Below, piece by piece: positions 1 through 46,836 of a DNA stretch of 64,000 nucleotides. The DNA lies in NCBI GenBank assembly GCA_964372415.1, contig CAYJQH010000003.1:24923-88922 (forward strand). Reading direction: 5' to 3'. The notes below the pieces were generated by a model that made no database searches, was not told the DNA's origin, and saw only the letters and a list, made by a program, of their open reading frames with translations. Source of the DNA: an uncultured Gammaproteobacteria bacterium. GTDB lineage: Bacteria; Patescibacteriota; Patescibacteriia; UBA9934. Within the stretch, counting starts at the first letter, position 1, and each line of letters opens with the position of its first letter. A program made the position numbers and the translations under genes.

Positions 1-1596
1 TCGTTGAGTGGCGAGCACGAGGTGTATGCCAGCAGCCCTAGCCATTTGGGCAATGCGTACAATAACTGCCTCAACTTCACGCTTGTTTTGAATCATCAAG
101 TCAGCCAACTCATCAATAACGATGATGATGCGCGGCATGCGTTCTTCACTTTTGGCGTTATAACTATCAATATCGCGTGCGCCAAACTTCGCAAGGTAAT
201 CCAAACGTCGATCCATTTCACGAACTGCCCACTTCAAGGCATTGATTGCTTCCTCGGCCTTAGTAATTGGTGGCACGAGAAGATGAGGGATGCCGGCATA
301 AATACCAAGCTCCACTCGCTTGGGGTCAACCATGATGAGCTTAAGATCATCTGGGCCATTTTGATACAAAAGTGAAACAATGATGCCATTCAAACAAACC
401 GATTTTCCGCTTCCCGTAGCACCGGCTACAAGCATGTGTGGCGCTTTATCGACAAACAGCATTGGCACGCCACCTGAAATGTCCTTACCAAGCGGTACGC
501 CGAATGTTCCCTTTCGCTTGGCAAACTCTTTTGACTCCAAAACTTCGCGCAGACTGACGCGAGCGACCGATTGATTAGGCACTTCAACGCCGACCAAAGC
601 CTTACCTGGAATCGGGGCTTCAATACGAATCGGGTGAGCAGCCAGAGCTAGAGCTAAATCGTTCTGTAAGGCCACAATACGCGACAGCTTAACGCCGTGG
701 GCTGGCCTGAATGAGTATTGAGTAACTGTGGGTCCAACCTTCACTTCAGCCATCTCGACGGTTATCCCAAACTGTTCGAGGGTGCGCATGATAATCTCTT
801 GACTGCGGTTAATATCGCCAGCCTTGCCTTGCGACCGACGGTTATCAAGAAGGTCTAGTGGCACCTCGATCTTACGCCGCTCGGTTGAAACCATGATTTC
901 TTCCTCGTTCTTAGCCGGCATAAAAGCGGCCGCCAGTCGACTCATGCGATTCGCCTTAATCTGACCATCTTCATCGATCGTGGTTTCTTCGATCACTTCT
1001 TCAGCTATAGCTACCGGTTCGACCTCGGCTGTCTCGGCTTCCGCATCTTCATTATTCTCCCTTCGGCCAAACAAGCGTCCCGGGAAGGCAAAAATTGAGG
1101 GCAGTGAAATATTGAAAAATAAGATAATTGATATTGCAAAAACTGCTAGAGCAATAATAAGTGCTGCCACAAAACCAACCGATTGCACAAGAAGCGCTGA
1201 GGTTAAAAGACCAACCTGGCCACCCGCTCTGCGTAAGGCTTCAAGATCGTTCGGATCACGAGCCAGAATTAGATTCAAAAGTCCATCAAGAGCCAAAATG
1301 CAAAAGAGAAGTGCAAGCCAACCGCGAAAACTCAAAATTCGCGCCTGAGGAATAACTGCACTACCACCCATCAAAATCAAAAGCACGGGCACTACTAAGC
1401 GCGAAATGCCAAGTATCGTGGCTAACTCGTTATCAAACCAATCACCAACCGAACCAGCCAAACCAAAAAACGAGAGGAGCATAATTGCCCCAAAAGCCAC
1501 TAAAAGAATGGCAAAAACACTTTTTCGTACTTCATCTGAGACCAATGCCTCGTCGTCGTCCCGCATCCCTGCCCGCCGTTTTCCTCGTTTGGCCAT
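1..1596 (-). CDS. ftsK: DNA translocase FtsK/SpoIIIE (N-terminal membrane part plus motor; C-terminus runs off the window start)
   Basis: Reverse-strand translation starts MAKRGKRRAG... at 1596 and reads in frame to position 1 (1596 nt, 532 codons) with no stop. It contains FtsK motor motifs (..LVLATQRPSVDV..) and an N-terminal hydrophobic domain. The six-frame track omits it because it is open-ended. Confidence 0.85.
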   Translation of the reverse strand, partial: MAKRGKRRAGMRDDDEALVSDEVRKSVFAILLVAFGAIMLLSFFGLAGSVGDWFDNELATILGISRLVVPVLLILMGGSAVIPQARILSFRGWLALLFCILALDGLLNLILARDPNDLEALRRAGGQVGLLTSALLVQSVGFVAALIIALAVFAISIILFFNISLPSIFAFPGRLFGRRENNEDAEAETAEVEPVAIAEEVIEETTIDEDGQIKANRMSRLAAAFMPAKNEEEIMVSTERRKIEVPLDLLDNRRSQGKAGDINRSQEIIMRTLEQFGITVEMAEVKVGPTVTQYSFRPAHGVKLSRIVALQNDLALALAAHPIRIEAPIPGKALVGVEVPNQSVARVSLREVLESKEFAKRKGTFGVPLGKDISGGVPMLFVDKAPHMLVAGATGSGKSVCLNGIIVSLLYQNGPDDLKLIMVDPKRVELGIYAGIPHLLVPPITKAEEAINALKWAVREMDRRLDYLAKFGARDIDSYNAKSEERMPRIIIVIDELADLMIQNKREVEAVIVRIAQMARAAGIHLVLATQR

Positions 1597-9816: not shown

Positions 9817-10278
9817 TTGTTGCTTTTTTTTACTATTCGTGTAATCTTATCGGTCAACGTTCCTTCCTTCTTCGGAGAAGAAATGCGCTCGAACCTTTGC
9901 GCGATCGTCGCCTGCCTTCTCGTCGGCGTCAGATTCCCGCAGTCGGCCATGGCCGAAGACGAGTCTAAGCCAACCGCAACAAGCGTCGGCAAAGCCTTCG
10001 TCTACGCAAGTGGCGCTAGTCTACTCGGCACGCTTACCATGTATGCGCTTGCCGAAAACCATCTCGATGATCTACAGCAAGGGCGGTACAACAGTCGCGC
10101 CGAGTACGACCGGCTGAGTTCCGCCTACGCCAAGGAACGAGTCGCTGCCTATACGCTCCTTGGCACAACTCTCGCCTGCTTCGTGGTCGGTGATACTCTC
10201 ATCATCATCGATAACTTGGAACTCACCATGAGTCCAGGTAACACGACTCCTCTCCTCGGTCTTCGTGGAAACTTCTAA
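9817..10278 (+). CDS. Hypothetical secreted/membrane protein
   Basis: Internal Met (MRSNLCAIVACLLVG, about 9883) gives a signal-peptide-like N-terminus. No motif recognised. Confidence 0.35.
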   Translation: MLLFFTIRVILSVNVPSFFGEEMRSNLCAIVACLLVGVRFPQSAMAEDESKPTATSVGKAFVYASGASLLGTLTMYALAENHLDDLQQGRYNSRAEYDRLSSAYAKERVAAYTLLGTTLACFVVGDTLIIIDNLELTMSPGNTTPLLGLRGNF

Positions 10279-10284
10279 GGCCGA

Positions 10285-10320
10285 AAAAGCCCCCGACGAT
10301 TAGCCGGGGGCCTTATTATT
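10285..10320. terminator. Bidirectional intrinsic terminator between convergent genes
   Basis: aaaaaGCCCCCGacgattagCCGGGGGCcttattattt: GC stem with A-run on one side and T-run on the other. Confidence 0.65.
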
Positions 10321-12665
10321 TATGGAGTAGTTATTTCACCTACCGTCTCTTCAGGAATCTCTTCAACTGGCTCCGGGAGTTCGATTCCTCCTTGAGCTCC
10401 TGCCGTGAGACGCTCCAAGCGTTGTTTGACGGCTGTATTTTCCGGGTTTAGTTCAAGTACTTTTTGCACTTCTGAAATGGCTGCTTCTATTTCACCTTCT
10501 TCCTCGTAAATAACCGACAGATACCAATGGGCGTTTGAGAAGTTAGGTGCAATTTCAACCAGTCGCTCAAGTTCCGCCTTAGCTAAATCGTTCTTTCCTT
10601 GACGCAAGTACAAGAGCGCCAACTGGATACCAACCCCAAGATCGTTAGGCGCCGCATCACGAACCGCCGTCATGTCACGAACTGCTTCGGCGAGCTTACC
10701 TTGGCGCTCCTCAACGAATGAGTAGTAATAACGAGCAAGTACGTAATCACTCTTTAAACGAATTGCCTCCTGAAGCGCTGCTTCTGCTTTGGCCAGGGCC
10801 TCAGTTTGTAATCTACTGGCCTCTGCTGCAGCGGCCTCATCCTCAGCCTTTGTTTGTGGCGCTAGACTATCGGCCGTCACTATATAAGCACGAGCTAATT
10901 CAACTCTGAGACGTGGGTTAACTGGCCACAGGGCAATAGCTTGCTCATATGAAGCCACCGAAGCTTGGCTCGCATCTGAGGCAAGCGGTATCAATTCTCT
11001 AAATACTGTGCCACTCACTTCCCAGTTCCGAACATCGTTTGGCGAAATGGTCTTAGCGGCATTAGCTACGGCTACAGCATTACCAAGCAGTGACTGTAGA
11101 CGAGCACTGTCTGGCTCATCTTTTTGAGCTTCAACTGCGGCTTCCAAAAGAAGCGCAGCCGCGAGATTGCGGTAATAAACATCATCCTTAGGCGAAAGCG
11201 TAGCCGCCTTATTAAGTAACTCAATTGAAGCCAACGTTCCTCCGTCTTGAGTCTGCATGGCCTTGGCGTAAGCGACATTGGCCAAATATTTATTAGTCAC
11301 AACGTAGCCCACTACCGCGCTAGCTGTGATTGCGAGAACAAAGGCGGCATAGGTAGCTAGTTTAGCCCGCGGTGATTGACCAAGCGCTAAAATTTTAGCG
11401 GGCGGCAATAACTCAGCTAAAAGAATTCCTGTTAGGAGCCAAAACCAGACAACAAGAGTCATGTTAGTGGGATACACGACCGAAGCCACAACAAGCACTA
11501 ACCAAGCAATGAAAGGTGGCACGAGCGTTGCCGCAACGTTACTTGAGCGAGCCATAATCAAGCGGCGAATAGCCCCCACGAATATGACTCCAAGAAGCGC
11601 TGCAAAGGCAAGCACACCAACCAGGCCGTGAGTGGTTAATGAGGTCAGCGCCTGCCCTGCCCCACGATCAAAAATAACATCCCAAAGCGGCGATTTATTT
11701 ACGTTTTCACTAACGAACTTGCTGTACCCTAGGCCAAATGTTCCAGGACCGCTGCCCAAAAGAAAATTTCCATCCTTCCAGGTGCCCTTAGCAATCTCAA
11801 TCGTGGTCGCTTTGCCAGGTGCTGCTTCACGAGCAAAGCTCACACCCTGAAAGGGGCTTTGAAAAAGAAGAAAAGCTGCTGACAAGAAAAAAAGTGCAAC
11901 AAGGGGTACCAGTCTGCCTGGCGAAGCGTAATATTCGGCATAATAGAAAGCCAGAATACTGAGCGCAATACTAACTATTAGTCCGAGCCACCAGATCATC
12001 CGAGCATCAAGAACAACGAGGAGTAGACCGCCAACGATGAACAGACCAATCATTAAGGCAATTTGTAAGATTCGCCCTCGACTGCTTTCTGATTCTTCCC
12101 GCACGAGCCACCAGGCGCTAGCCCAAGAGAGGGCAGTCAGCAGAAAATAACCCAAACCAATCGGGGCGCCGACAGTGTTGGCAAAAATTCCGATGTTAAT
12201 TTTAAGAATTGGCAACAAAGCCAAGAGGGCCACCAGAAAGGCGCTGCCGAGCAAGGCCCAACCTAGACGTTTGCTCTCCTCCGCGCCGCGCAAGAGAAGC
12301 GGCATGACTAGGGCTAAAAGACCAAGTAAAGCGGTGGTCAAAAAACTGACATCTTCTTCGGTTTGACCCCCGAGCCAACTGATGTGGCTCTCTTGAGACA
12401 ACAATGACCCGAGCCCAACCACCCCTACCCAGACGAGTACCGCGATCATCGCGTAGCCGAATCGCGCCTCAATACGACGTTCAACTAAACTAGCCGCAAG
12501 CCAAGTAAGAACTACCACAGCCGTAGCCAAGAACAACCACAATTGTTTATTTATCTCAAGTGGTTCCCCGGTCCAAGGAAAGGCCACAAGTGGCAAGGTA
12601 ACTGCAAAGAAAATGAGCGCTCCCCGTGAGATATTGCGCAACGTTCCGTCTAAATTTTTTGACAT
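10320..12665 (-). CDS. Polytopic membrane protein with O-antigen-ligase/Wzy-like core and C-terminal TPR repeats
   Basis: About 12 predicted TM helices in the first 450 aa, a large periplasmic loop, then about 300 aa of TPR-like helical repeats (AELERLVEIAPNFSNAHWYLSVIYEEEGEIEAAI...). Confidence 0.55.
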   Translation of the reverse strand: MSKNLDGTLRNISRGALIFFAVTLPLVAFPWTGEPLEINKQLWLFLATAVVVLTWLAASLVERRIEARFGYAMIAVLVWVGVVGLGSLLSQESHISWLGGQTEEDVSFLTTALLGLLALVMPLLLRGAEESKRLGWALLGSAFLVALLALLPILKINIGIFANTVGAPIGLGYFLLTALSWASAWWLVREESESSRGRILQIALMIGLFIVGGLLLVVLDARMIWWLGLIVSIALSILAFYYAEYYASPGRLVPLVALFFLSAAFLLFQSPFQGVSFAREAAPGKATTIEIAKGTWKDGNFLLGSGPGTFGLGYSKFVSENVNKSPLWDVIFDRGAGQALTSLTTHGLVGVLAFAALLGVIFVGAIRRLIMARSSNVAATLVPPFIAWLVLVVASVVYPTNMTLVVWFWLLTGILLAELLPPAKILALGQSPRAKLATYAAFVLAITASAVVGYVVTNKYLANVAYAKAMQTQDGGTLASIELLNKAATLSPKDDVYYRNLAAALLLEAAVEAQKDEPDSARLQSLLGNAVAVANAAKTISPNDVRNWEVSGTVFRELIPLASDASQASVASYEQAIALWPVNPRLRVELARAYIVTADSLAPQTKAEDEAAAAEASRLQTEALAKAEAALQEAIRLKSDYVLARYYYSFVEERQGKLAEAVRDMTAVRDAAPNDLGVGIQLALLYLRQGKNDLAKAELERLVEIAPNFSNAHWYLSVIYEEEGEIEAAISEVQKVLELNPENTAVKQRLERLTAGAQGGIELPEPVEEIPEETVGEITTP

Positions 12666-12674
12666 AGAATGTCC

Positions 12675-15600
12675 TTATAGTGCCACAGCTGTATTTGTCT
12701 CGCTAGATTCACTCTGGATAGAATTCGTAAGTGCTTCTCCCGTCTCTAGAGGAGCTGTTAATTCGGGATCCGGAGTTGTCACGTTGGGCTCACTAGTTGC
12801 CGATTGAGATTCGGAAGTTACTAACTCTGGTTCATTTGTTGTTAATTCGGTTTCGTTCTGTACTGTCTCAGAATCTGTGGGTATTACCTCGGTTACAAGT
12901 ACGTCTTGTGCCTCTTGGACCTCTGTGGGCTCTTGAGCGAGCGGCTCGAAGTCTTTGTGGTAGGCAATAACAAGCCAGTCTACAAGAACCCCGCTCGCCC
13001 CACCTTCAGCATGAATAGTAAAGCCACCGTTTGAGCGATCGGTTACGTAAATCTGACCGGTAATACCCGAGGGGGTAACAAGGACACGATATGATGACCC
13101 GGGTGAGATGACGTCGTTAAACTTAGGATCAATTTGTTCGAACGATACGTTCACAAGTCCATTAACGAGCGTCGCGGTTCCCGACAGTTGCACCGTAGTC
13201 TCGCGGCTTGCCACAGCATACGTTTCAACCCTTTCATTTTGGAATGAATTGACTATCTGAATCAGACGCCCCTGCGTTTCAAGATCGCCATTTTCGGAAA
13301 TTTTCCAGAGCCCGTTACCGGCCACGATTGATGACACCCCAAGAATACTCCCGCCATTCATGGCAAGTGAGCCCGAGATATTCAGATTTGAAACATTACT
13401 CGATAGGTTAGAGACGATATTTTCGGCCATCGGTGTTTCAGCGATACTGCCATTTCCATCAAAGTAAGACGGACGAATGAAAGCCACAATTTTCCCTTCG
13501 TTTGAGGTCATTTCAGCCATGGCATAACCAAGAATTGGGCCGGGTTCGGTAGCTTTCATAGCATAACCGGGACGAGTTGAGGTGGTGAGTGGGTCACCAA
13601 CCGCAACCGAGCCATTTTCGTTTGTCACAAAGGTCGGCACGCGGCCAGCCAAAGCCACCGGATAATCACCAACTCGATTTTCACCGGCTAAAAATCCAGG
13701 ACGTGTCGAAATCACGCCAGCAATGCGATCGCTATATGGCTCATCGCCGGATTTTTTAACTTGTTCTTGGCCATCGCCAAAAACCACTAATTCGCCCGGT
13801 TTGAGAGTCTCCTTAGAAGGGAACATTTCAGCAAAGTCGTATGAACCCGTTCCCCAACCGGCCGCGTTCGTTCTCATGTAACCGACACCCGTTGGATCGT
13901 AGAAAATATAAGCATTAGTTTGGGTAATTCCATTTCCGGAGGGATAAAATTTGCCGCTTAAAACAAAGTCTCCAGTTTGAGTGATCGCCCCTACCTCAAC
14001 ACCGGCATTGTTGGTCACTGCCAAACGCGAATCGGCTGGTCCGATAACCTTATTTACCAGCCCCATGGTTACCGTTTGCGCCGAACTTCCATCCCAGGCC
14101 GAGCCACGGAACGTCAAAGCATTTGAATCTTGTAGTGGATTTGCGGCAGTCGCCTGAGCCACGGCCGTAAGCGCTACTTCATCCATAAGGAGTGCAACTT
14201 GACCATCGGTACTCAACACCTGTCCGGCATACCACTGGGGCGACACGTGAATCTTAATCAGACCTTGACCGGCAGATATAGACTCCAAGGCAAAACCGAT
14301 GATTGACGACGGACCATTGGCCCGTCCGGCATAACCTGGAACGAATGAGGAAGCCGTCACCGCATCACCAATATTGATTGGCCCATCAGCGGCTGAGGTG
14401 TAGGTAGAAATTTGACCCTGAAGACCAACAATCCGGTAGTTAGGATTATCTTCAAGCGATCCATCAGCGCCAGGAATATTGTTACCCACAAATCCCGGGT
14501 TCGGTGAAACTACACCGACAACGTCCCTATTCCCCGCCTCGCAACGCTTGACCGAATTAGCATTCAAACGATCACGACAAACCACATAAGAATCCTGAAG
14601 CGTTGGATCGTTGCTTCTGAAAAATTCAGCGTAGTCAGCGCCCGCGTTGTAGGTTGCACCGTCACCAAAAATGTCGCCGTCGTTTTCAAAACGGAACTCG
14701 GCATCCGGCGTGCCATCAGCATCCGAAACGATGAGTATGACTTCGTCACCATTTTGAGCCTCGTTGACGTTAATCACTAGAGCCTGCGAGGTAGCTGCCG
14801 TCGTGGCATCGGCTACGACGTCTTGAGTGATAACCAAACTCGATGACGTGGCAGCGGTGCTATCGTTACGAATCGACATCACATTGACATCGAAAGCCGT
14901 ATTATCCTGAAAGACATGAGCTATCGGTTGGTTGGCGGTCGCGCCAAGGTTGGTGTAAACCGTAAGGCCAAAGTCGATGTTCCCAGTGTTATCTATATGC
15001 ACTGCTCCACCAAGGGTTGAACTAACCGTTGACCCGGTATTACCGGAAGGATCAACAAAAATTGAGGAAGCGGTTCCGGAGTTGGCCAAATTAATAACGC
15101 TCACGCTCAAGGTACCGCTTGTGCCGCTATCTGCGAGCGATAACAGCGTGTTTGTGCCATCGGTGACGCTGAGCGTTCCCGTGCCGGCAATTTCGATGGT
15201 TGGCGAGGTATCGGCAAATACCAAATCAGAATCCCAACCAGTGCCGATTTCGATTGCATTCTCATCAGAACCGGTAGCCGTGATGTTGGCAATATTCAAC
15301 GCTCTAAACGTATCACCACCATCCCCTGAAGGCGTGAGCGAAGAGACGTTTATAGCGTTGGCAACTTGGCCAGAAACAGCTGTCCCAACTGCTTCGAGCA
15401 CAATGTCGAGACCGTCAAAACTATTGAAGCTAGCAAACCCGGAGTTGGTGATGGCTAAAAGATCATTGTTGGTTCCCGGTGACGCGGCGGCCACCACCTG
15501 GAGGTTTGAGTTAGAATCAGCATTTACTACAACGTCTCCTGAACCATTAGGAACTAAGAACAACGTTTCGTTTGTTCCAGTTGTAATATCGTTTGAAACA

Positions 15601-18600
15601 CCGCTAAGGGTAAGTGTGCCATCAGTGGTAATTGCATCTAGGCTCGCCGCGCCAGTCGCCCCGATAGACCAATCATTACCCCCGGTAATAGTAATTACCG
15701 TTCCGGCGTTTGAGTTACCAATCGTCAGTGTATCGGCCGTGGTCGAATTGGTGGCAACATTGATAGTGTTGCCCAAATCGGTGGTAACGCCACCAATATC
15801 GAGTGTCGTAGAATTTCCGGACGCATCAAGCAGGTTAAAGGTCGCTGAGGTGGAGGTAAAATCACCACCATTTAATGCCAAGTCACCGGTTGTCGTAACA
15901 TCGCCACTTGAGCCAACCACGTCAAAGTTTGTGAAATCAATGTTTGCTGTAGTACCAAGAAAAATGTTGTCACCGATATTGAGCGCATTAGTAAGCTCAG
16001 CATCAGAAACATCGATACCGTCAGTGATGCCACCAGCAGATGCCTGAACAATAATACCGTCCACCATGAGTTCGTTGGTGTCAGAATTCGTAAACACGGC
16101 CAGCGAATCAGGAACACCGGTACCTCCCCCATCATTCGCATTCTGAATAATCATGATGTTGTTACTTCCGGTATCAGCCGCCGCTGTATCGGTAAAAGCT
16201 ACAACAAACGCATTCAGGCTAACATCTGTCCCGTGCGTAACATCAATATTGAAGTTCTCCGAGGCAGCGCCATCGGTGACAAAGGTGAAATCAACGTCAT
16301 CATTTATGGCAAGCGTACCGAAAGAAGCGGCACCAGCAGCGCTGATCGACCAGTTGGCATCGGCAAGCGACACATTATCTAGGGCGTCTCCGATCGTGAT
16401 TGTATCGGCATCGGCATTTGTACCGAGTGTCAAGGTGTCGCAAGACGCTGAGTTACACAGCGAAACGCTCGTGGCGTTGGTGTCGCCAAGGGTTAAGGCT
16501 CCTCCAGCGTTTGTATCAAGACCAACACCCGCCGCCACGGTGATGGCACCGGCAGAGGAAACATCAAAATTATCAAAATTAAGTGTACCGGTGGTACCGA
16601 GAATTTCGTTTGCGCCTACAGACAAGGCAGTTCCAATCTCGTCGTCGGAAGCGTTGAAAGCGGTGGTAAGAGACGCCCCAGGATCGATGCCAAAAGTAAT
16701 ACCGTTCGCGACTATTTCGTTAGTATCTGCTGATTCAAGAATGATAAAGCCATCAGGAGTGCCGGTGGCTCCGCCATCATTAGCGTTATGCAGAGCTATA
16801 AAATAATTTGCTCCCGTGTCGGCGGCGGCGGTATCGGTCATGAGCATCGTGAGCGGCGTCATACTGACATCCGTGGCGTGCGTTACGGTAATCGCTAAAT
16901 TTTCTGACTGCGCACCATCGGTTGTAAAATTGAAGTTCACGTTGTCGTTCGCTGTGAGATCGCCACCAAAAGTGGCCAGGCCGGCACCAGTAATCGACCA
17001 ATCATCACCGCCCGTAATGGCCACAGTCGTGGCCGCATTGCTGTTACCGACAGTTAAAACATCTGCCGTAGTTGAGTTCGTGGCGATATTCACTGTGTTG
17101 CCAAGGTCAGTCGTCACGCCGCCGAAATCAAGAGTTGTCGAAGCGCCAGCTGCGTCCTGAAAGTCGAACGTGGCAACTGACGACGTAGCTATGGACCCAT
17201 CGCGGTAGCGTGTTGAAGCACCGCCGGCAGTGAATCCGACATCAGATAAAAACTCACCCGAAGCCGTAATCCGAGCCTTGGTAGTATCGGCTGCCGTGCC
17301 GGAATTGGTGGTTTCATCTGTAATAAGTGTAAAAACGTCATTGTTGGTGTTCCCGTTATCAAAATCGATGAATAAGGCTTGGGCGGTGGCCGTAGCTGAA
17401 CTTGAGAACATTTCAACGATGTTGCCGGTAGCCGCCCCAGAAGCCGTGAACTGGAACATGTTATCCGACCAAGCGCTGCTGCTTCTAATGTTGGCAATTG
17501 AACCGCTCGTCAAAGCATTAGTATCAATATCAAGCAGGTTGCCTGTTGTCAGAGCCGTTGCATCAAGCATGAAAACCTCGCCCGAGGTAGCAGTCGTATT
17601 AGTAAAATCTAGTGTCGCGTCATCTTTAAAAGTAAAGAAAGTAGCACCACCATCTTGAACCACAAAATCTCCAGTCGAAGTCAGGTTCACGACAGTATTA
17701 GCCGAAGAACCGTTAGTAACGGTAAACGTCTCGGCCCCGTCGAGAGCGATTGAGGTTGAGGCATCGAGGTCTAATGCGTCTTCAAACGAGTCGAAATCAA
17801 GACAATCCGTACACACCAAATCGCTCACCGTCGCTACACCGGCTGTAGTAATACTCCAGTCGTCACCACCTGTAATGGCGATAGTCGAGGCAGCATTGGA
17901 GTTACCGATGGTGATAACGTCAGCAGTCGTGACATTCGTCGCGATGTTTATAGTGTTGCCGAGGTCTGTAGTGACGCCGCCAATGTCGAGAGTTGTCGAG
18001 TTAGCCGCTGCGTCAAGAAAATTGAAGGTGGCAGAAGTCGAAGTAAAATCACCGCCGTTCAGTGCCAAATCGCCGGCTGAAGTAATGTTCCCACTCGCTC
18101 CTAGGACATCAAAATTGGTGTAATCAATATTACCTGTGGTACCAGCCAAATCATTCGCGCCAACCGACAGAGCGGTTACTATTTCAGCATCACTTGCGTC
18201 AATCGCCGCGGTCAAAGCGCCGGCTGCTACATCAAATAAAATACCTGTGGCCACTGCCTCATTGGTATCCAAGTGGCGCAACCCCAGGAGCGCGTCGGGT
18301 GTGCCGGTCGCTCCCCCATCGTCCTCGTTGTCGATGTTGAGCAGGATTACCGTTCCCGTATCGGCTGCGGCTGTGTTAGTCGAATTCAAACTTATGACAG
18401 AAATCGAAGAATCTACAGCGTGTGTGTGATCGATGGTTAAATTTTCAGCTCCCACGCCACTTGTTGCCAAAGTAATGTCTAAATCACCACTGAGCGATAA
18501 GTCGTCGTTGGTACCAAGTTGAACAACACCTGAAGAATCAATGGTTAACGTGCCGTCACTTGTAATGTCATCGCCGTTAATTGCCAAGTCACCGGTTGCT

Positions 18601-19304
18601 ACAATATCGCCCTCCTTGTCGACGCGGAAAATTGAGGTGCCACCATCGGCTACACCAAAAATCGTGTCGTTCGCTGCCGAATCAACAGCCGCTGGATTGA
18701 TGTAAAGGGAACCAGCCGAAACACCGGAACCTGACGGGTTACCGGTCACGACCAAGTTACCAGATGAATTGTAAGCCACGATGGCCGCTGCCGTCGCGCC
18801 GTCGTTATCGGCGTCAAGACCATCGAGGGTTTCGGAATTCAAGGCGTATGGCGCGGCGACGATTTGTTTTCGCGGACTTAAAACCTCGCCAGCAACAGTT
18901 ACCTGAAGAAACAAGGCTGCGTTATCGGCAAAAATTGCATCACTGATTGCGGCATAAGGTGTGGCAGCAGCGGTATCACCCAAATTTTCTGAAAACAAAC
19001 CGTCGGTCAAAGTCACGGTCCGTGCGGTCGCCGAAGCACACGTTGCAGATGAGTTCGACCACACACAAGAACCGCCCGACGAGGCCGTGTAGAACTCAAA
19101 GATCATGCTGACCGAAGCGCTTGAAAGCGGTATACCGTTGGCATTCAATAATCGACCTTGATAAGTAATTATGTTGGGCGCTGAGGCGGCCTGAACGATC
19201 GGCGTCACTCCGCTCACAGGACCCAAAGCAAAAATACAAAGCGTCGCCAGCAGAAATCTGGCGACTTTTGTCGCGCTGAATTTAGACTTGAGATGCGTTG
19301 TCAT
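12675..19304 (-). CDS. Giant (~2,200 aa) secreted repetitive surface protein
   Basis: Signal peptide ([28 protein letters not shown]). N-terminal module [16 protein letters not shown]...[13 protein letters not shown] resembles modules of phage-tail-fibre-like bacterial proteins. About 1,400 aa of Thr/Ser/Gly/Asp/Asn-rich beta-repeat units ([23 protein letters not shown]..Tx[14 protein letters not shown] recurs at least 3 times). Duplicated ~150-aa C-terminal domain (...[14 protein letters not shown] / ...[14 protein letters not shown]). Acidic Thr/Glu tail. The longest ORF begins at 19424. The Met before the signal peptide at 19304 is preferred. Confidence 0.7.
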
Positions 19305-21777
19305 GAAGTTCGTCGAGCGTCCGATGAAGACCCACGTTGACGGTGAGTGGTGCCGGCTCTGCTTGAGTGGTAGTGATTGGTTTGATGATCTTTTCCACAA
19401 AACCGGGTTTACTAACACTCGCATAATACTCGTTCGGACCGAGCAAGAACGAATAACGCCCGAGACGATCTGTTAAGGTCGACTCGATAAGCTTATTATA
19501 CCGCGGTTCAAAGAGCCTTATGACGGCGTTGCTCACAGGTTTATGCGTATTTTTATCGTAAACAATTCCCCAGCCTTTTGGCTTCTTCTTGTATACTAGT
19601 TTAAGCACCAGTAACAGCACTATAAATTGAATTCCGAGCATTGCTCCTGCAGCCAGGCTCGGGGCGATGATCAAGACGACTATTGAGATTCCCAGTCCCG
19701 ATAAGCCAAAAACAAGCTGGATTGTTTTTAAAAGTCGTTCGACAGCTAATTTTCGAGGTGCGTGAAATTGGGGCGCGTCAGACGGATCAAGTGGAATATT
19801 GGCTGTAACATTGGTTTTTTGCTCCGATACCTCAATATCTTCACCATGATAAACATCAAGATATTGACCGTCCGTTTTGATTTCGGCCAAATATTTACTG
19901 GGAAAGTTAAAACCTGGCTTTATTACCTCAAGGCGATACCTTCCTGGTTCAGCAAATACATAGAATCGACCTTCAGGGCTAGTAACGGTCGACTTCACAA
20001 GTCGATGTTCCGGCATACGGAACACGCGAATAGTGGCTAGACCTATCGGCACTTTAGTTACCGCGTTGTAAACTCGGCCAAAAGGGCGGCGTCGTTTTTT
20101 ACCGAAAAGTAAAGCTGGCGAAGTAAAAATGTAAAAAATAAAAGGCAGTAAATTTGAAACCGTCGCGAGGAGGGCAAGCGATACCAAGGCGATTGCGGCA
20201 GCCAATGGAAGGCCTATTCTGGCGATTGCCTGGGCAAGGGGGGCGTCAAGAATGTTACGTAGAAAAGGTGGCTCGAAGGGCGTTTCATCTGGTGTGATTA
20301 TAGGCACTAAAAGACGCTCAAGACGAACGTTAATAGTTAGAATGTTGTTTGTCACATTAACCTCAAGAGCAACATCCTCATAACCCGATTTGCTAACTAT
20401 GACTCGATAAGGACCGTTCGGCGTATACCAACCAATTAAACCATCGTCACCTGTTAAAACCGGATTTTCCTGATTAAAAACAAAGGCTTCCCAGGCTACA
20501 CCTGGCCCTTCTGAAAGATCATAAACGGTAACCACAGCTCCGGAAACAGGTACTACTTCGTCGTCAATAATCTCGTAAACAAGGCCAGAATCAGCGATAT
20601 CAATAAACACTGTGGCAGTCGCTTCTGTGTCATCAGCAAAATGCACAATGGTTCCAAGGGCGTCGTCAGAAACTGGGACGGGCACCAAACCCGAAAACAC
20701 GTTCGGCTCTTTAGTCGGTGAGAGTACGTATTGATCGTCACCTAAGACTACAACCACGCTTGTCGCCGCATCTTCAGAGTGAACAATAACTTCAACCTCA
20801 GCATAGGTTCCAGGCAGGACCTCTACCCCACCGTCGGCATCATCAAGGCGAAAGTCGTCAACTGCAATAATATCAATCTCGACCCGCGGTTCATCTATTA
20901 ATTCATTATCCGTTTCCTCATCTTTGGGCCCGTCTGGTGATGGCGTTGGGGTCGTTTCTGGAAGAGGAACTGATGGTGGCTGTGGCTCGGGAGTTGGTTC
21001 GGGTTCAGGAATCGGCTCGGGAGTTGGTTCGGGTGTAGGTTCCGGTTCAGGCTCAGGAATTGGTGTAGGCTCTGGCTCGGGAGTTGGTTCGGGTGTAGGT
21101 TCCGGTTCAGGCTCAGGCTCAGGTTCTGGTTCAGGTGACGGGGGTGTCGGATTCGACCCTCCTCCGCCTCCCCCACCGCCTCCGCCTGATGATGTTACAA
21201 CCACGCTCACCGAGTCACTACCAGCGCTCGTGTAAGGAAGGGGTATTGAGCCATCATTGCCTGAGGTTCCACCAAGCGTCAGGTAGTAAGTGCCGGGAGT
21301 TGAAGGATTCGTAATTCTATTAGCGCCAGAACCCGATGCCGCGGCGTTCGTACCAATTTCAACTGTTACCACACTACCGTTAGCCATCGCTCCCCCGTCC
21401 CCGGCACAAATGGTCAGAGTGAGGGTACCTGATGACATAGCTACCGAGGCCTGTTCAGCCCCAGCACACGTTGCTGCAGTTGTTAAATCAACCCCATCAT
21501 CAGTAATGTCGACATCATCCTCAACAATCGAGCTCGTCGTAAAACTACTTGGAAAAACTAGAGTTATTGTTTCACCCTCCGCCCAGGCGTCGACAAGCGT
21601 AAAGGTAAATTTGTGATTTGCAGTTTGTGACGTAACAAGAGAAGTTGGCTGATCAGAAAGGCTATCAACCGCAAGCGCCATCACCCACACAGGAACAATT
21701 AAAAACATGCTGACTAGCACTAAAAGTGTGGTCAGCGACTGACTAAAACAACGCTGCGCCCTCCGCCCGTCGTTCAC
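19282..21777 (-). CDS. Secreted/polytopic protein with Gly run, Pro-Glu-Thr linker and two CarboxypepD_reg-like beta-sandwich domains flanked by TM segments
   Basis: Signal peptide. G11 run followed by [18 protein letters not shown]... linker. Two TM blocks and two paralogous domains ([20 protein letters not shown]... / [21 protein letters not shown]...). Confidence 0.6.
20940..21180. repeat. Tandem ~63-nt DNA repeats encoding the Pro-Glu-Pro-Thr linker
   Basis: ggctcgggagttggttcgggtgtaggttccggttcaggctcagg... recurs in tandem at about 21016-21141 with flanking degenerate copies. Confidence 0.6.
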
Positions 21778-21788
21778 AATTGCTTACA

Positions 21789-22682
21789 CTATACGCGACG
21801 GAATTGTCGCCAAACAAATAATAAAATGACAACGATTAATCCGCCTACGAGCGCCAAAATACGCCAAGGAAATAGTACCACGTTTGTGGTCTTAAAAATT
21901 ACACTTTGGCCATCGGCTGAAAGCAATTCAAGAGTAGCCGTGTACGGACCAATGTAAATGCCTGAATTAGGTTGCCAATTAATCGTAAATACCCGACTCG
22001 TTCCGCCGGGAATTCGTCGCGGAATTTCAATCAATGGCAAGGCTGCTATATCTTTTCCCCACATGTTTGTAAGCACCACCTGTCCTACAGGCTGTGTGGT
22101 AGCTTGGCCTTGATTTGTTAGAACGGTGATGAATCTTATGGGAAAAGTGCTTGTAAACTTCGGTGTCGCCTCAAAAGACGAAATAGTTAGGTCGGCTTCC
22201 AAAACATCCCCGATGGTCATAAAAAACAAGGCTGCGACTCCTTGCCTAACCGATACGCCGCCGGTTACCTCTGCAGATTTATTTTCTTGTTGGGCAATTA
22301 AGGCCACCGTTACTACTCTGCCTGATGCTTCGCCTTCCGGGCTAATACTTAGATCAATAGCTCTAGTGCTATGTGGTGTAAGTTCAACCCGTTGAGTAGT
22401 CAGTTCAAACCAGTCTTTCATATCTTCCGGAAGTTCAGAAAATACGAGGTCGTCAGCGCTTGATCCGAATTCTACGAGTTGAAGCGATAAATTATACGTC
22501 TCTGTTTGATTGTTTTCGTTTATTAAATGCAAGGTTCTGACCAATTCCGTGCCAGGATCAATTACAACGTCAGTTGCATCTGGATCAAAACGAACTGCGC
22601 TCGCCGTAGTAGTCAAAAAGAAACTTGAGGTTATCCCAAGGATGCACAACAATACTCGAAATTTATTAGTAATTACCGACAA
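21789..22682 (-). CDS. Secreted protein with C-terminal TM anchor (two beta-rich domains), hypothetical
   Basis: N-terminal signal peptide. C-terminal hydrophobic helix plus RQFRRV stop-transfer. The architecture resembles DUF916-type surface-cluster proteins but that could not be confirmed. Confidence 0.5.
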   Translation of the reverse strand: MSVITNKFRVLLCILGITSSFFLTTTASAVRFDPDATDVVIDPGTELVRTLHLINENNQTETYNLSLQLVEFGSSADDLVFSELPEDMKDWFELTTQRVELTPHSTRAIDLSISPEGEASGRVVTVALIAQQENKSAEVTGGVSVRQGVAALFFMTIGDVLEADLTISSFEATPKFTSTFPIRFITVLTNQGQATTQPVGQVVLTNMWGKDIAALPLIEIPRRIPGGTSRVFTINWQPNSGIYIGPYTATLELLSADGQSVIFKTTNVVLFPWRILALVGGLIVVILLFVWRQFRRV

Positions 22683-23571
22683 AAATGAAGGTCAACGAAT
22701 GGGAGTATGAATTACTCTGAATGCCGGAATCAACAGCTGATTTGAGAGTTAAAAAATCACGCGACTTAAAGGATACCGCCGATCGACTGGCGATTTGCTG
22801 AAGCGAGGTGGTAAAAGCAGAGTCTTCTGTATCAAAAGTTGATGAGGCAAGCGTAGTATCTGATGATTTTGCGCCGTATTCTGTACTACCTAACGATACC
22901 GAGCCGTCTGTAACATCACTAATCACGGGTGTGCCAGCGGGTGCCCTGAGTTCGCCATCCTCAAGCACGAACATGCTGTAACCGCTAGGTACGTCAGATG
23001 TCACTTCCCAGCCGATGATTCCAGTACTAGCAGTAGTCGACGATAATGATGAGAGCGGCAGACTAGTACCCGAAAGCTCGTAGACGTAGTCGCTCACGCC
23101 ATCAATCGTTGGACTTGATGAGCCAGTTGTTAAAAAATCGACGATTAATGTTGAGCCGCCAATTGAGGTAATTTTGCCTGTGGCCGAAATTTGACTTAGT
23201 CCCTCGTCCTGGACAATTGCGATGTAATCTCCCGTCGAGTAACCGGAGGTCGAAGTTACGGTTACGGTCGTGCCGGTCAGGGCTGTGGCTCCAACCTGCG
23301 AGTTAAGATCCTGAGAAAACAAGCTGAAGAAGACAGTTGGATCATAAATACCTGAACGAAAACCAGAATCCAAACGATAAGATGCAGATGACGATATACC
23401 AGCAAGACCTGACTCAAGCGAATCTCTAAGTCTGTATGAGCTAGATGAGCTCGTATCTGAGCCGCCTGAATTAAGGGAATCCCACTGAATTTGGTAAGTC
23501 GTTGAAGTCATGCTAGCAAAACCGAAATTTGGAGCAAAAAAAAGCAAACCAACAACAAGCACCGTAGACAT
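22666..23571 (-). CDS. Ser/Thr-rich secreted protein, hypothetical
   Basis: Signal peptide MSTVLVVGLLFFAPNFGFASM. Low-complexity S/T-rich body. First gene of the minus-strand surface operon. Start chosen at Met 23571 rather than ORF start 23637. Confidence 0.45.
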   Translation of the reverse strand: MSTVLVVGLLFFAPNFGFASMTSTTYQIQWDSLNSGGSDTSSSSSYRLRDSLESGLAGISSSASYRLDSGFRSGIYDPTVFFSLFSQDLNSQVGATALTGTTVTVTSTSGYSTGDYIAIVQDEGLSQISATGKITSIGGSTLIVDFLTTGSSSPTIDGVSDYVYELSGTSLPLSSLSSTTASTGIIGWEVTSDVPSGYSMFVLEDGELRAPAGTPVISDVTDGSVSLGSTEYGAKSSDTTLASSTFDTEDSAFTTSLQQIASRSAVSFKSRDFLTLKSAVDSGIQSNSYSHSLTFIFVGNY

Positions 23572-23645
23572 CTTTTTGCCAATATTTACAGGCATAATCT
23601 GCTGAACACAATAAGTCGTCAACCGTCTGTTTAGCAAGCTTTTTT

Positions 23646-23654
23646 GTGGATAAC
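23646..23654. promoter_or_regulatory. Perfect DnaA box (TGTGGATAA) in the AT-rich region upstream of the surface operon
   Basis: Exact 9-mer match to the TTATCCACA complement. Near-matches follow (tgtccacac, taatccaca). Confidence 0.35.
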
Positions 23655-23927
23655 TTTTTAAAAATTTTTTAATTTAATTTGTCCACACTAGCGTAGACAA
23701 ATTCTTTTGCGTTCGTGAGTCGTAAAACATAAAATATTTTTCTTAAAATAGTTTGTTGCCCACATTTAATCCACAGTTTCACATAAAACGTCGCAGCTAA
23801 CGTTAGCATAATTTAAGCAATTAGCAGAAAACTATCAACAGAGTAACGTGGTCACAAACATAAACGTTATTTTTTTGACGATTTTGACGATAACAAATGA
23901 AAAAATCTCATTAAATTGATTAATACG

Positions 23928-23992
23928 AGGCGTGGGGTTGATTTTTTCGAGACGTACTTAATGGTACGCTAAGAAAAAATCGGGCCCCACAA
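23928..23992. repeat. Structured hairpin element, copy 1 of a 3-4 member family abutting tRNA genes
   Basis: Outer stem gtgggg/ccccac, a long stem gattttttc/gaaaaaatc, and inner hairpin cgagaCGTACttaatGGTACG. Related to 24221-24289 and 30478-30550 with compensatory changes. Confidence 0.4.
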
Positions 23993-24022
23993 CACAGTAG
24001 TAAGCAATTTAATCAGATTTTC

Positions 24023-24098
24023 TGGTGGACCTGAGCGGATTCGAACCGCTGACCTCCGCAATGCGAATGCGGCGCTCTACCAACTGAGCCACAGGCCC
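24023..24098 (-). tRNA. tRNA-Ala (anticodon CGC)
   Basis: 76-nt cloverleaf on the minus strand with G3:U70 Ala identity pair and anticodon loop TTCGCAT. T-loop GGTTCGAATCC. Encoded CCA. Confidence 0.85.
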
Positions 24099-24316: not shown

Positions 24317-24392
24317 TGGTGCCCCCACCCGGAGTTGAACCAGGATCAAGGGCTTAGGACGCCCCCGTTCTATCCAATTGAACTATGGGGAC
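24317..24392 (-). tRNA. tRNA-Arg (anticodon CCT)
   Basis: 76-nt cloverleaf on the minus strand. Anticodon loop GTCCTAA. T-arm CCTGG-TTCAACT-CCGGG. Encoded CCA. Confidence 0.75.
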
Positions 24393-30578: not shown

Positions 30579-30653
30579 GGCGGCTATAGCTCAATGGTAG
30601 AGCACCGGGTTGTGGTCCCGGCTACACGGGTTCGATCCCCGTTAGTCGCCCCA
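30579..30653 (+). tRNA. tRNA-His (anticodon GTG) with encoded G-1
   Basis: Extra 5' G pairing with C73 discriminator. Anticodon loop TTGTGGT. T-loop GGTTCGATCC. Encoded CCA. Confidence 0.85.
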
Positions 30654-30722: not shown

Positions 30723-30799
30723 TGGTACCCCGGGCAGGAATCGAACCTGCGACCTTGAGCTTAGAAGTCTCCTGCTCTATCCAACTGAGCTACCGGGGC
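30723..30799 (-). tRNA. tRNA-Arg (anticodon TCT); anticodon stem has two non-canonical pairs
   Basis: 77-nt cloverleaf on the minus strand. Good acceptor, D and T arms (GCAGG-TTCGATT-CCTGC). Anticodon loop CTTCTAA. The anticodon stem GGAGA/GCTCA forms only 3 Watson-Crick pairs. Confidence 0.65.
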
Positions 30800-30986: not shown

Positions 30987-31925
30987 CTACGATCCACTAT
31001 CTACTTCCTTATTTTTATCATGAAACTCTTTGTACACCCGCTTTAGCTCTTTGTCTGTCACATGCGTGTAGACCTGGGTGGTGGTAATCGACGCATGACC
31101 AAGGAGTGACTGCACCGCTCGGATGTCGGCGCCGTTTCTTAAAAGGTCCGTCGCATAGGTGTGGCGAAGCGTATGGGGGGTGACGCGCTTGGTAATACCC
31201 GCTTCGCGAGCATAACGGTCAACAATGCGCTGCACCGAGCGAGGCGTGAGCGGCTGCGCTTCGGTTTGCGCGGCCTTTGCCCGATCGTGACGCACGAACA
31301 TAAACGGGGAAGTGTCGCGCCGCTTGTCGAGGTAAGTACGAACCGCTTTCTTCGCTCGATCTGACAAGAAAACTACCCGATGTTTTTGTCCTTTGCCCAC
31401 AACCGTGAACTCGTCCTGCTTTAAATTCACGTCCTCAACCTTGAGCGAAGCAAGTTCTGACACCCGAAGCCCAGTTGAAAACAACAATTCAAGAATTGCC
31501 TTGTCACGGATACCGACAATTGTCGGATCAGCTTCCGGAGCAGCAATCAAACGGAGGAGTTCTTCTGGTTCTAAGAAAGCCACTTGGCGCGTTCCTTGTT
31601 TGGCGAGCTCGATTTTTTCAGGCGCGAGCGTCTTAATGTCACGCTTGGAGAGATATTTAAGGAAAGTACGGAGAGCAATTAGGTGATAATTTTGGGTATT
31701 CTTTTTAATTTGACCCTCAAGGCGACCCGCGACATTGCGATTTAAAAACAGTCTGTATTTTCGAATAAGTTCTAAGTCAATTTCGGCTGGAGCAGGCAAT
31801 TTTGCCCACTTGGCAAATCGTTGAAGATAAAAATGATAATTCCGGACCGTCTTATCAGAGCGTCCGCGCTCAATTTCCAAGTATTCAAGGAATTCTTTAA
31901 TGAGTTCGTTTAAAGCTTTGGCCAT
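30987..31925 (-). CDS. Tyrosine site-specific recombinase, XerC/XerD-like integrase
   Basis: N-terminal SAM-like domain plus C-terminal catalytic domain with R...HTLRHTYATDLLRNGADIRAVQSLLGHASITTTQVYTHV (catalytic Tyr). 190 nt from tRNA-Arg(TCT). Confidence 0.8.
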   Translation of the reverse strand: MAKALNELIKEFLEYLEIERGRSDKTVRNYHFYLQRFAKWAKLPAPAEIDLELIRKYRLFLNRNVAGRLEGQIKKNTQNYHLIALRTFLKYLSKRDIKTLAPEKIELAKQGTRQVAFLEPEELLRLIAAPEADPTIVGIRDKAILELLFSTGLRVSELASLKVEDVNLKQDEFTVVGKGQKHRVVFLSDRAKKAVRTYLDKRRDTSPFMFVRHDRAKAAQTEAQPLTPRSVQRIVDRYAREAGITKRVTPHTLRHTYATDLLRNGADIRAVQSLLGHASITTTQVYTHVTDKELKRVYKEFHDKNKEVDSGS

Positions 31926-37726: not shown

Positions 37727-37798
37727 TGTGGATAAATCCTGGATAACATCATACTTATCCACAAATAACCAAATGCTTGTTCGGATGATTTATCCACA
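37727..37798. promoter_or_regulatory. DnaA-box cluster: three perfect plus one near-perfect TTATCCACA boxes in 72 nt
   Basis: TGTGGATAA (37727-37735), ccTGGATAA (37738-37746, 7/9), TTATCCACA (37755-37763), TTATCCACA (37790-37798). First two inverted, last two direct. Followed by an AT-rich stretch and a ~530-nt ORF-free gap. Confidence 0.6.
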
Positions 37799-46622: not shown

Positions 46623-46836
46623 ACTGCGAATAGTCTACATTTTTTGCAAAAATTGGTCAAACTCAAACAATATTCACACCACTTATGAGGTTATCCACAC
46701 TTTTACCCACCTTATACACACCGTTCACCTATTTAAAGAGCATTGTTACCTGTGGACAGATCCGCTATGATGTGGCACATCTCTATATGGGGGTACGTCG
46801 ATCTCCCGAGATTGAAAATATGGTATTCGCGCGTTT
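46623..46836. promoter_or_regulatory. rpmH/dnaA divergent control region with DnaA boxes (oriC left part / dnaA promoter)
   Basis: Perfect TTATCCACA at 46691-46699, plus TGTGGACAG (46751-46759) and TGTGGCACA (46771-46779) near-matches. Confidence 0.5.

Follow-up and report, generated by a model that had tools for sequence, protein, structure and literature searches.

A conserved five-gene operon of pilin-like and tail-fibre-like surface proteins in Candidatus Uhrbacteria

We have analysed a 64-kb stretch of contig CAYJQH010000003.1 (hereafter the window, in whose numbering coordinates are given unless a related locus is named) and describe in it an operon of five genes, g1 to g5. The operon is most likely a conserved surface-appendage module of Candidatus Uhrbacteria, a lineage of the Parcubacteria group within the candidate phyla radiation (CPR), and it occurs in modified form in other CPR lineages. 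Its parts show homology to the CPR Pam pilus, to the WxLIP proteins of Firmicutes and to the MAT prey-recognition fibres of Bdellovibrio. Our literature search found no description of this operon.

Gene order and conservation of the operon

The operon occupies positions 10320-23595 and consists of five tightly packed open reading frames (ORFs), all on the minus strand. In order of transcription, the genes and the hairpin that follows them are:
22666-23595, minus strand: g1; public gene call start at 23595, ATG at 23571, longest ORF start at 23637
21789-22682, minus strand: g2, membrane-tethered protein with tandem immunoglobulin-like (Ig-like) domains
19282-21777, minus strand: g3, 831-aa polytopic protein, putative anchor subunit
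12675-19304, minus strand: g4, 2,209-aa secreted protein, predicted fibre; longest ORF extends to 19424
10320-12665, minus strand: g5, polytopic membrane domain with tetratricopeptide repeats (TPR)
about 10286-10314, both strands: bidirectional hairpin resembling an intrinsic terminator, between g5 and the convergent plus-strand ORF at 9817-10278

Neighbouring genes overlap by 17 nt (g1/g2) and 23 nt (g3/g4) or are separated by 11 nt (g2/g3) and 9 nt (g4/g5), and each product either carries a Sec signal peptide or is a membrane protein. An earlier note on this DNA had described five minus-strand genes at these coordinates, separated by gaps or overlaps of no more than 25 nt and ending at a bidirectional terminator at 10285-10320. 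ORF calls and the junction lengths confirm the genes and their spacing, and its physical descriptions of all five proteins were correct. The terminator corresponds to a hairpin with a 12-bp GC-rich stem (dG -22.4 kcal/mol, z -2.76 against shuffles, RNA fold of the minus strand) that lies in the 41 nt separating g5 from the convergent ORF, is followed on the minus strand by UUUUU and has T/A tracts on both sides. Counts of promoter and terminator consensus matches within the operon were not above chance. A further hairpin, an 8-bp GC-rich palindrome at 19243-19265, sits at the g3/g4 junction inside the signal-peptide codons of g4; it was scored terminator-like on both strands, in a region where terminator-like matches were not above chance, and could attenuate transcription of the giant g4 gene. 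The flanks are made up of housekeeping genes, with ychF, a sigma factor gene and a methyltransferase gene on one side and rmuC, holA and polA on the other. No paralogue of any of g1 to g5 was found elsewhere in the window.

Conservation was assessed by scanning one genome per GTDB species, which returned 104 genomes with a g1 homologue; 80 loci were fetched, and their gene order was read by tblastn and ORF chaining. The order and strand g1-g2-g3-g4-g5 are kept in every sufficiently long locus among these 80 Uhrbacteria loci. The co-oriented, conserved surface-protein operon of the earlier note, which had named synteny of the five-gene block as a check, is thereby borne out, and it is very probably an attachment apparatus. 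The flanking genes are often common to the relatives too (rmuC, tRNA-Arg(CCT), rpsT, holA and polA). Orthologue identity is about 55% for g1, 18-41% for the fast-evolving g2 and about 33% for g5. In g3 the N-domain and the C-half are conserved, and in g4 the two ends (the first 250 and the last 500 residues), which enclose a variable middle; g4 lengths range from 984 to 2,249 aa.

A word-indexed search yielded at least 253 homologues of g1 at 49-70% identity. All named ones belong to Patescibacteria or Candidatus Uhrbacteria, and restriction to the CPR is consistent with every named match. Many third-party records of metagenome-assembled genomes that bear the operon and its flanks (L006, L012, L016-L019, L024 and others) are titled Gammaproteobacteria, Methylococcaceae or Kapaibacterium; these unrelated-taxon titles are probably placeholder or wrong labels, or the contigs were mis-binned. 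A search of 2.9 million viral contigs gave zero matches to g1 and one weak match to the g4 C-terminus.

A wider set of 63 metagenome loci was found through short PamT-like proteins, which share 31-55% mutual identity. Here the order is the PamT-like gene, an optional two-domain pilin, g2, g3 and g4, with g5 after or before them, and the relative order was constant in all 28 loci in which at least two of g2, the g3 C-half and the g4 N-domain were detected. Of the loci with enough sequence, 44 of 48 have a g2 homologue after the PamT-like gene, 21 of 28 have the g3 C-half and 13 of 21 the g4 N-domain. Two-domain pilins occur in 20 of the 63 loci.

Domain architecture of the five products

The Pam pilus was described in Ca. 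Mycosynbacter amalyticus (Troman et al., bioRxiv 10.64898/2026.03.03.709456), a study that is also the source of the NCBIfam models NF058579 and NF058581. In that pilus the tip is formed by PamT, which acts only as an acceptor, PamC/D serve as chaperones and carry a transmembrane (TM) helix at the C-terminus, and PamR, to which the authors assign an RbmA fold, is a TM-anchored terminator; a tail fibre-like protein is co-localised with the Pam operon (bioRxiv 10.64898/2026.03.03.709456). The preprint makes no mention of WxL, glycosylation, TPR/ligase genes or Uhrbacteria.

The first gene of the operon encodes a protein of 309 aa in the public gene call, or 301 aa from the ATG at 23571, with a signal peptide, 33% Ser+Thr and no cysteines. 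Its parts, in the 301-aa numbering, are:
aa 21-75, nt 23347-23511, minus strand: conserved N-segment of about 55 aa with three S-x-x-Y-x-[IL] motifs
about aa 79-165, minus strand: inserted small beta-barrel of about 85 aa
about aa 166-301, minus strand: C-terminal Ig-like domain of the Pam-pilin type

Against the PamT model (NF058579) the window g1 scores 32.6 bits (E 5e-8) and does not reach the equivalog cut-off of 240 bits. The model was matched by all 23 g1 orthologues tested, with a best E of 1.3e-16, and Pam_pilin_C (NF058581) was matched over its full length at the g1 C-terminus in 10 of the 23, in both cases below cut-off. An AlphaFold2 (AF2) model of g1 from 88 sequences reached a pLDDT of 82.9 with a confident core at aa 75-301, and it gave structural matches to donor-strand pilins. 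Conservation is highest at residues 21-50 (entropy 1.07 versus about 1.5 bits), which are nevertheless modelled as disordered, as would be expected of a segment that folds only within a complex. An exhaustive profile search returned 1,230 cluster representatives at E<=1e-3; many of them are 210-240 aa long, lack the middle barrel and are PamT-like rather than PamT equivalogs. Neither the g1 profile nor the PamT-like profiles matched any sequence in the PDB, WxL chains included; a possible relationship of g1 to WxL is hinted at by motif shape. The significant, non-equivalog homology marks g1 as PamT-like, a pilin of the kind found in the CPR Pam pilus, with a predicted fold resembling donor-strand pilins.

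The third gene, g3, carries a second pilin-like domain. Its product begins with a signal peptide, and its topology was derived from hydropathy and the positive-inside rule:
aa 34-196, nt 21190-21678, minus strand: domain resembling a pilin N-terminal domain, with the following beta-strand and two near-invariant Cys
about aa 197-300, minus strand: G11 run and PE/PT-rich stalk of about 100 residues
aa 514-558 and 682-731, minus strand: three hydrophobic spans, Arg/Lys-flanked

Behind the stalk follows an Ig/CarboxypepD_reg-like ectodomain. Hydrophobic spans with RRKRK after them come next, and the rest of the protein has two CarboxypepD_reg domains separated by a TM hairpin. CarboxypepD_reg (PF13620) was recognised over three stretches with E 2e-22 and 79.8 bits against a cut-off of 32.3. 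In an alignment of 29 orthologues the Cys-pair domain of about 160 aa is followed by a conserved strand (IPLPI…GVSxxV), a Gly run and a PE/PD/PT stalk. The N-domain has no sequence match in the PDB and no similarity to g1. Its profile, however, spans the whole N-domain of proteins of about 360 aa that lie between the PamT-like gene and g2 in related loci (L093 10695-11804, L096 10648-11748, L123 8270-10426), with E 1e-20 to 2e-31. The C-domain of these proteins is of the Pam-pilin type, with E down to 1e-44, and judged from their sequences they are PamA/B/E-like two-domain pilins. By this correspondence g3 has the N-domain and the linker-strand position of a pilin, with a stalk and a membrane anchor in place of the acceptor domain. 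No second ORF matching the g1 or g3 N-domain profiles was found in the window, so two-domain shaft pilins (PamA/PamB/PamE) are missing from it.

The stalk region of g3 takes several forms among the relatives. Cys-rich repeats (C-G-M-T-N-S-G…C) replace the Pro/Glu stalk in L065 (3177-5672) and L078 (11735-14233), possibly forming a different, disulfide-rigidified stalk. In L012, L039, L049 and L084 g3 is about 1,140-1,250 aa long and carries, judged by eye, tandem fibronectin-III-like inserts between the pilin N-domain and the stalk. From these insert variants it follows that stalk length and composition differ between lineages. In some relatives (L089, L096, L097, L127) two genes, coding for about 765 aa (N-part) and about 880 aa (C-part), take the place of g3.

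Between these two genes lies g2, whose product has two beta domains between a signal peptide and a TM helix near the C-terminus (aa 273-296); the start in the public gene call differs from the one at 22682. A word-indexed search gave only 3 homologues, and orthologues were taken from the syntenic loci instead. The window g2 alone matched no Pfam family, and an NCBIfam scan of the g2 family gave no match. A profile of 65 orthologues searched against the PDB matched EfmWxLIP1 of Enterococcus faecium (9i25/9i1y) with E 1.3e-10. Among the 65 members, 10 matched Pfam WxLIP_PGBD (DUF916, PF06030) and 26 matched fn3_5; DUF3324 was not detected in the family. The AF2 model of g2, built from 3 sequences, is poor (pLDDT 57.5), and a Foldseek search with this low-quality model returned RbmA (E 8e-5) and WxLIP 9i1y (E 2e-4). 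In WxLIP proteins, which combine DUF916 (PGBD) with DUF3324 (HBD), a signal peptide precedes two Ig-like domains and a TM helix lies at the C-terminus; their hairpin is predicted to insert into a neighbouring WxL protein (PMC10599100). At the family level the profile match indicates that g2 is homologous to WxLIP/DUF916 and belongs to the WxLIP / PamC-D / PamR class, where it would act as either a chaperone or a co-anchor.

The giant protein g4 has a signal peptide, 22% Ser+Thr and an acidic Thr/Glu/Pro-rich tail. Its parts are:
aa 38-117, nt 18954-19193, minus strand: MAT-type N-domain, directly following the signal peptide
aa about 230-1280, minus strand: large imperfect repeats with internal identity up to 71%
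aa 1557, nt about 14636, minus strand: cleavage-type motif DYAEFF of a Peptidase_G2 domain
aa 1823, nt about 13838, minus strand: cleavage-type motif DFAEMF of a Peptidase_G2 domain

At full length g4 matched nothing in Pfam, PHROGs or the PDB. Its isolated termini scored better, Peptidase_G2 rising above threshold and the NCBIfam match to Bdello_MAT_N improving strongly, which shows that long repetitive proteins need piecewise scanning. The C-terminal 700 aa matched Peptidase_G2 (PF11962), an IMC (intramolecular chaperone) autoproteolytic cleavage domain, over two stretches with 43.3 bits against a cut-off of 25 (E 3.6e-11), and 18 of 28 g4 orthologues matched it as well. The cleavage-site motif D-[YF]-A-E-x-F is present twice, and autocleavage is predicted. 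Against the PDB, the g4 family profile matched the chaperone domain of the Dpo31 tailspike (E 6e-5) and the autochaperone of phi29 gp12 (E 0.017). The isolated N-terminus scored 39.7 bits (E 4e-10) against NF053851 Bdello_MAT_N, whose cut-off is 60, and that of L004 scored 34.8 bits. MATs are signal-peptide-bearing trimeric prey-recognition fibres of Bdellovibrio with an intertwined beta-prism/helix shaft, and their conserved N-domain is presumed to bind a cell-surface element still to be identified (PMC10769870). These matches mark g4 as a predicted fibre, Bdellovibrio-MAT-like and phage-tailspike-like, with two Peptidase_G2 autochaperone domains.

The last gene, g5, encodes a membrane protein in two parts:
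aa 1-470, minus strand: polytopic membrane domain with about 12 hydrophobic segments and the conserved loop motif LFGSGPGTF
aa about 480-760, minus strand: TPR repeats (Pfam TPR, E 1e-11)

Pfam Wzy_C (PF04932) was matched by none of 13 g5 orthologues, even with the isolated membrane domain at E<=10. The profile of the membrane domain was aligned by hhalign to two proteins that carry precomputed PF04932 and TPR assignments (P0146 and P0147), with probabilities of 93.5% and 93.1%, E about 3e-7 and about 400 collinear columns. The polytopic domain, about 470 aa long, and its conserved extracytoplasmic loop are a further likeness to the superfamily of WaaL, Wzy and PglL/PilO, from which g5 is set apart by the missing direct Pfam match. 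Catalytic residues of g5 were not identifiable. The earlier note had called g5 a ligase-like TPR membrane protein: the collinear alignment to Wzy_C+TPR proteins lends that likeness weak support, whereas direct recognition of Wzy_C fails throughout the family. We take this as a hint that g5 may be a remote relative of the O-antigen ligase / polymerase / O-oligosaccharyltransferase superfamily.

DnaA boxes and other features around the operon

The region upstream of g1 contains the following features:
23596-24022, minus strand: upstream non-coding region, likely promoter, GC 0.43
23645-23653, operon orientation: perfect DnaA box (consensus TTATCCACA)
23679-23687 and 23767-23775: DnaA boxes with 1 mismatch each to the same consensus
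23622-23594 and 23838-23810, minus strand: Sigma-70-like hexamers, consensus matches only, in number not above chance
24023-24098, minus strand: tRNA-Ala(CGC), between rmuC and g1
24317-24392, minus strand: tRNA-Arg(CCT), between rmuC and g1

The earlier note had seen an AT-rich upstream region with DnaA boxes, which agrees with this GC content and these three boxes, and it had missed both tRNA genes. Enrichment of DnaA boxes was measured in the 500 bp upstream of g1 in 73 Uhrbacteria loci (L003-L085) against the rest of the same loci. Perfect boxes occur there at 2.06/kb versus 0.014/kb elsewhere, about 150-fold, and boxes with at most 1 mismatch at 4.3/kb versus 0.20/kb. At least one box is present upstream of g1 in 71 of the 73 loci, frequently in the form of a direct pair spaced by about 42 bp. 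In 47 more distant loci the boxes are still clearly enriched, though less so (about 38-fold). Because the boxes are kept upstream of g1, DnaA-dependent control is suggested, the simplest reading being that DnaA acts as a transcription factor on the operon.

An origin of replication upstream of g1 was ruled out, with dnaA and the GC-skew minimum lying at 46-48 kb. The dnaA gene (46837-48225, E 8e-126 to a solved DnaA) has DnaA boxes of its own just upstream, and 46691-48225, where the cumulative GC skew has its minimum, is the likely origin, about 23 kb from the operon. We take the ORF at 48477-49613 to be dnaN, as is probable. At 37727-37798, between an ORF that ends at 37724 and one that begins at 38329, 72 bp contain three perfect DnaA boxes, which may form another strong cluster for DnaA binding or belong to a bipartite origin. 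The tRNA-Arg(CCT) gene was found upstream of g1 on the same strand in all 30 relatives checked, and tRNA-Ala in about half; the two may be transcribed separately from the operon. An XerC/D-type tyrosine recombinase gene (30987-31925) lies about 7 kb upstream of it, adjoined by tRNA genes at 30580-30650 and 30726-30799, with no other sign of a mobile element there.

Relation to known attachment systems and a model of the appendage

The earlier note had held that none of the genes could be confidently assigned to a family and that the combination resembled no known pilus, S-layer or secretion-system operon. The first statement is contradicted by the Peptidase_G2 and Bdello_MAT_N matches of g4, the Pam models on g1 and the WxLIP match of the g2 family, and the second by the parts that the locus has in common with the Pam pilus and with WxL/WxLIP clusters. 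We regard the locus as a reduced and only distantly related version of the Pam pilus known from CPR bacteria and not as a wholly unknown system. Like the Pam pilus, it is CPR-specific as far as the named matches go, is Sec-exported and does without a trans-envelope machine; homology, below the cut-offs, links g1 with PamT and with the C-domain of Pam pilins; a TM-anchored tandem-beta partner, a putative TM-anchored terminal subunit and a nearby tail-fibre-like gene are present; and related loci have two-domain pilins (N-domain, linker strand, C-domain) like PamA/B/E. Two signs of donor-strand exchange, both indirect, are the conserved unstructured N-segment of g1 and the conserved V-S-x-x-V strand after the g3 N-domain.

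The differences from the Pam pilus are also considerable. Only one pilin-like gene is present in the window, shaft pilins being absent, and g1 contains the additional beta-barrel of about 85 aa and lacks cysteines. The anchor is the 831-aa polytopic g3 with its stalk and CarboxypepD_reg domains, not an RbmA-like PamR. The Pam chaperones are PapD/FimC-like, whereas g2 matches WxLIP/RbmA, with no PapD similarity detected. In the window g4 and g5 are integral, co-oriented members of the operon. ATP synthase genes lie near the Pam pilus genes, whereas no F1-ATPase Walker motifs were found in the window, and the Pam lineages are Saccharimonadia/Microgenomatia rather than Uhrbacteria of the Parcubacteria group. 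Compared with chaperone-usher pili (Fim/Pap, CFA/I, Csu), the locus has no usher, no outer membrane and no sequence similarity, and its chaperone-like g2 is membrane-tethered. Strict membership in the Pam and the WxL systems failed and the architecture is its own, which makes the locus a variant of known systems rather than a system of an undescribed kind.

The fibre gene g4 resembles the Bdellovibrio MATs and phage tailspikes in having a signal peptide, an adjoining MAT-type N-domain, a variable fibre and C-terminal autoproteolytic chaperones (PMC10769870), and both Uhrbacteria and Bdellovibrio must recognise and attach to other bacteria. Unlike the MATs, g4 has two Peptidase_G2 domains rather than S74 as its chaperone, its MAT_N score stays under the cut-off, and it stands in an operon with pilin-like and anchor genes, for which no counterpart is known in Bdellovibrio. 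With these partners the operon supplies a candidate for the surface element to which MAT N-domains attach.

We consider it reasonably probable that the product of the operon is an attachment fibre on the cell surface, assembled from parts like those of pili and of phage tail fibres, with a tip, an anchor, a chaperone and a fibre. From gene order, conservation, homologies and domain architectures, several of the homologies lying below threshold or being reached through family profiles only, we infer the other elements of the model: contacts between the products, formation of trimers, cleavage, glycosylation and regulation by DnaA. In it g1 would be an acceptor-only, tip-type pilin composed of the PamT-like N-segment and the Pam-pilin C-domain. 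The helix-tethered g2 would hold newly exported g1 by beta-strand complementation, which we propose by analogy with the WxLIP-WxL and PamC/D-pilin pairs. As a donor-only base, g3 would fill the groove of g1 with its strand, end polymerisation and anchor the complex, its Pro-rich stalk and TM spans fixing the complex through the wall. Relatives with two-domain pilins of about 360 aa could insert a shaft and make real filaments; since such pilins are missing from the window, its product would be a minimal tip on a stalk, that is, a fibre on a stalk. Trimeric g4 would fold by means of its two C-terminal Peptidase_G2 autochaperones, which would probably be cleaved off, and would dock with its MAT-type N-domain on the g1/g3 complex, plausibly on the g1 N-segment or on the tailspike-anchor-like barrel. 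Its fast-evolving repeat region would thereby be presented for recognition of host cells, g5 would glycosylate the Ser/Thr-rich parts or otherwise help to assemble them, and DnaA would control transcription through the promoter boxes.

Several observations weigh against this model. The operon has one pilin-like gene, so there may be no filament at all. All Pam and MAT_N matches lie under the NCBI curated cut-offs, most markedly the PamT score of the window g1. There is no PapD-like signal in g2, and its poor structural model fits RbmA and WxLIP equally. Two of the CarboxypepD_reg domains of g3 appear cytoplasmic by the positive-inside rule, which the model leaves unexplained. Finally, g5 never matches Wzy_C directly, and its TPR domain may be cytoplasmic if the protein has 12 TM helices.

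The locus could instead encode a WxL/Csc-type, non-filamentous wall complex in which g2 holds a divergent, WxL-like g1 on peptidoglycan and g3 and g4 are independent adhesins or polysaccharide-binding proteins. WxLIP is the sole solved-structure sequence match of g2, whose family is homologous to DUF916, includes the 10 WxLIP_PGBD matches and has the same signal peptide/two-Ig/TM architecture (PMC10599100; PDB 9i1y, 9i25); a small secreted beta-protein is adjacent to it, for which binding by strand insertion is proposed; WxL clusters too pair a small and a large secreted protein with a WxLIP; and a single pilin-like gene in the window would suit a complex that forms no filament. A WxL/Csc match had been named in the earlier note as an outcome that would speak against its reading, and it holds for the g2 family but not for the locus, in which strict membership fails: no WxL Pfam domain was found in g1, g3 or g4, compared with the two or more adjacent WxL-domain proteins of such clusters, the g1 and PamT-like profiles reach no WxL chain in the PDB, and neither DUF3324 in g2 nor an LPXTG protein was detected. 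In addition, g1 matches Pam pilin models, the g3 N-domain is that of a pilin, and the extra two-domain pilins in related loci imply polymerisation. WxL clusters are limited to Lactobacillales and Bacillales, a different phylum, and have no pilin homologies, giant trimeric fibre or Wzy-like TPR protein, all of which this locus has or is predicted to have. We therefore judge a WxL/Csc complex improbable.

Less probable again, to the point of being very unlikely, is an S-layer or envelope glycoprotein locus with g4 as the S-layer or sheath, g5 as its O-oligosaccharyltransferase and g1 to g3 as accessory wall proteins. Surface layers are known on CPR cells. The remote likeness of g5 to Wzy_C, with Gram-positive S-layer glycosylation clusters as a parallel, the Ser/Thr-richness of g1 and g4, and the place of the operon among housekeeping genes, universal in the lineage, would all be in keeping with such a locus. 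However, g4 bears hallmarks of trimeric fibres and tailspikes (MAT_N and two Peptidase_G2 domains) rather than of a lattice-forming protein, and its middle is hypervariable in length and sequence, as it typically is in fibres that bind receptors. Domain scans of the operon proteins showed neither SLH nor any other S-layer domain, and the pilin homologies of g1 and g3 would go unexplained.

A domesticated prophage or tailocin remnant, with g4 as tail fibre and its neighbours as baseplate or assembly proteins, recalls the phi29 gp12 and Dpo31 likeness of the g4 C-terminus and the tyrosine recombinase gene 7 kb away, but is hardly credible and was rejected on the PHROGs search, which returned nothing meaningful and no other phage genes, and on the absence of g1 and near-absence of the g4 C-terminus from the viral contigs, while all products have Sec signal peptides or TM helices and the context of rmuC, rpsT, holA and polA is identical across dozens of species.

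Beyond the tip-and-stalk attachment fibre that we favour, a more general idea can be put forward tentatively, as a possibility we hold to be rather unlikely as a whole. An usher-less donor-strand module of tip plus anchor, widespread in the CPR, would form an evolutionary link between Gram-positive WxL/WxLIP complexes and Pam pili and would mount a phage-like, fast-evolving trimeric fibre, homologous to MATs, on the cell surface for host capture; PamT-like N-segments would dock MAT N-domains, and a DnaA switch would couple attachment to the state of replication.

CPR bacteria, or Patescibacteria, make up a large share of bacterial diversity and are apparently host-attached, and little is known of their mode of attachment beyond a few Saccharibacteria. 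Of most value here are the anchor with a pilin N-domain, the linkage of pilin-like parts with a MAT-type fibre and the conserved DnaA boxes. A pilin N-domain fused to a membrane stalk, as in g3, suggests how an usher-less donor-strand filament of a monoderm could be terminated and anchored. The locus would extend the principle of the Pam pilus, in a minimal form, to Uhrbacteria of the Parcubacteria group, and would tie it to the WxL/WxLIP complexes of Firmicutes and to the MAT prey-recognition fibres of Bdellovibrio. It also provides candidates for an anchor (g1/g3), a possible glycosylation factor (g5) and a regulatory input (the DnaA boxes), and in g4 a candidate host-recognition fibre whose variable middle could predict host range.

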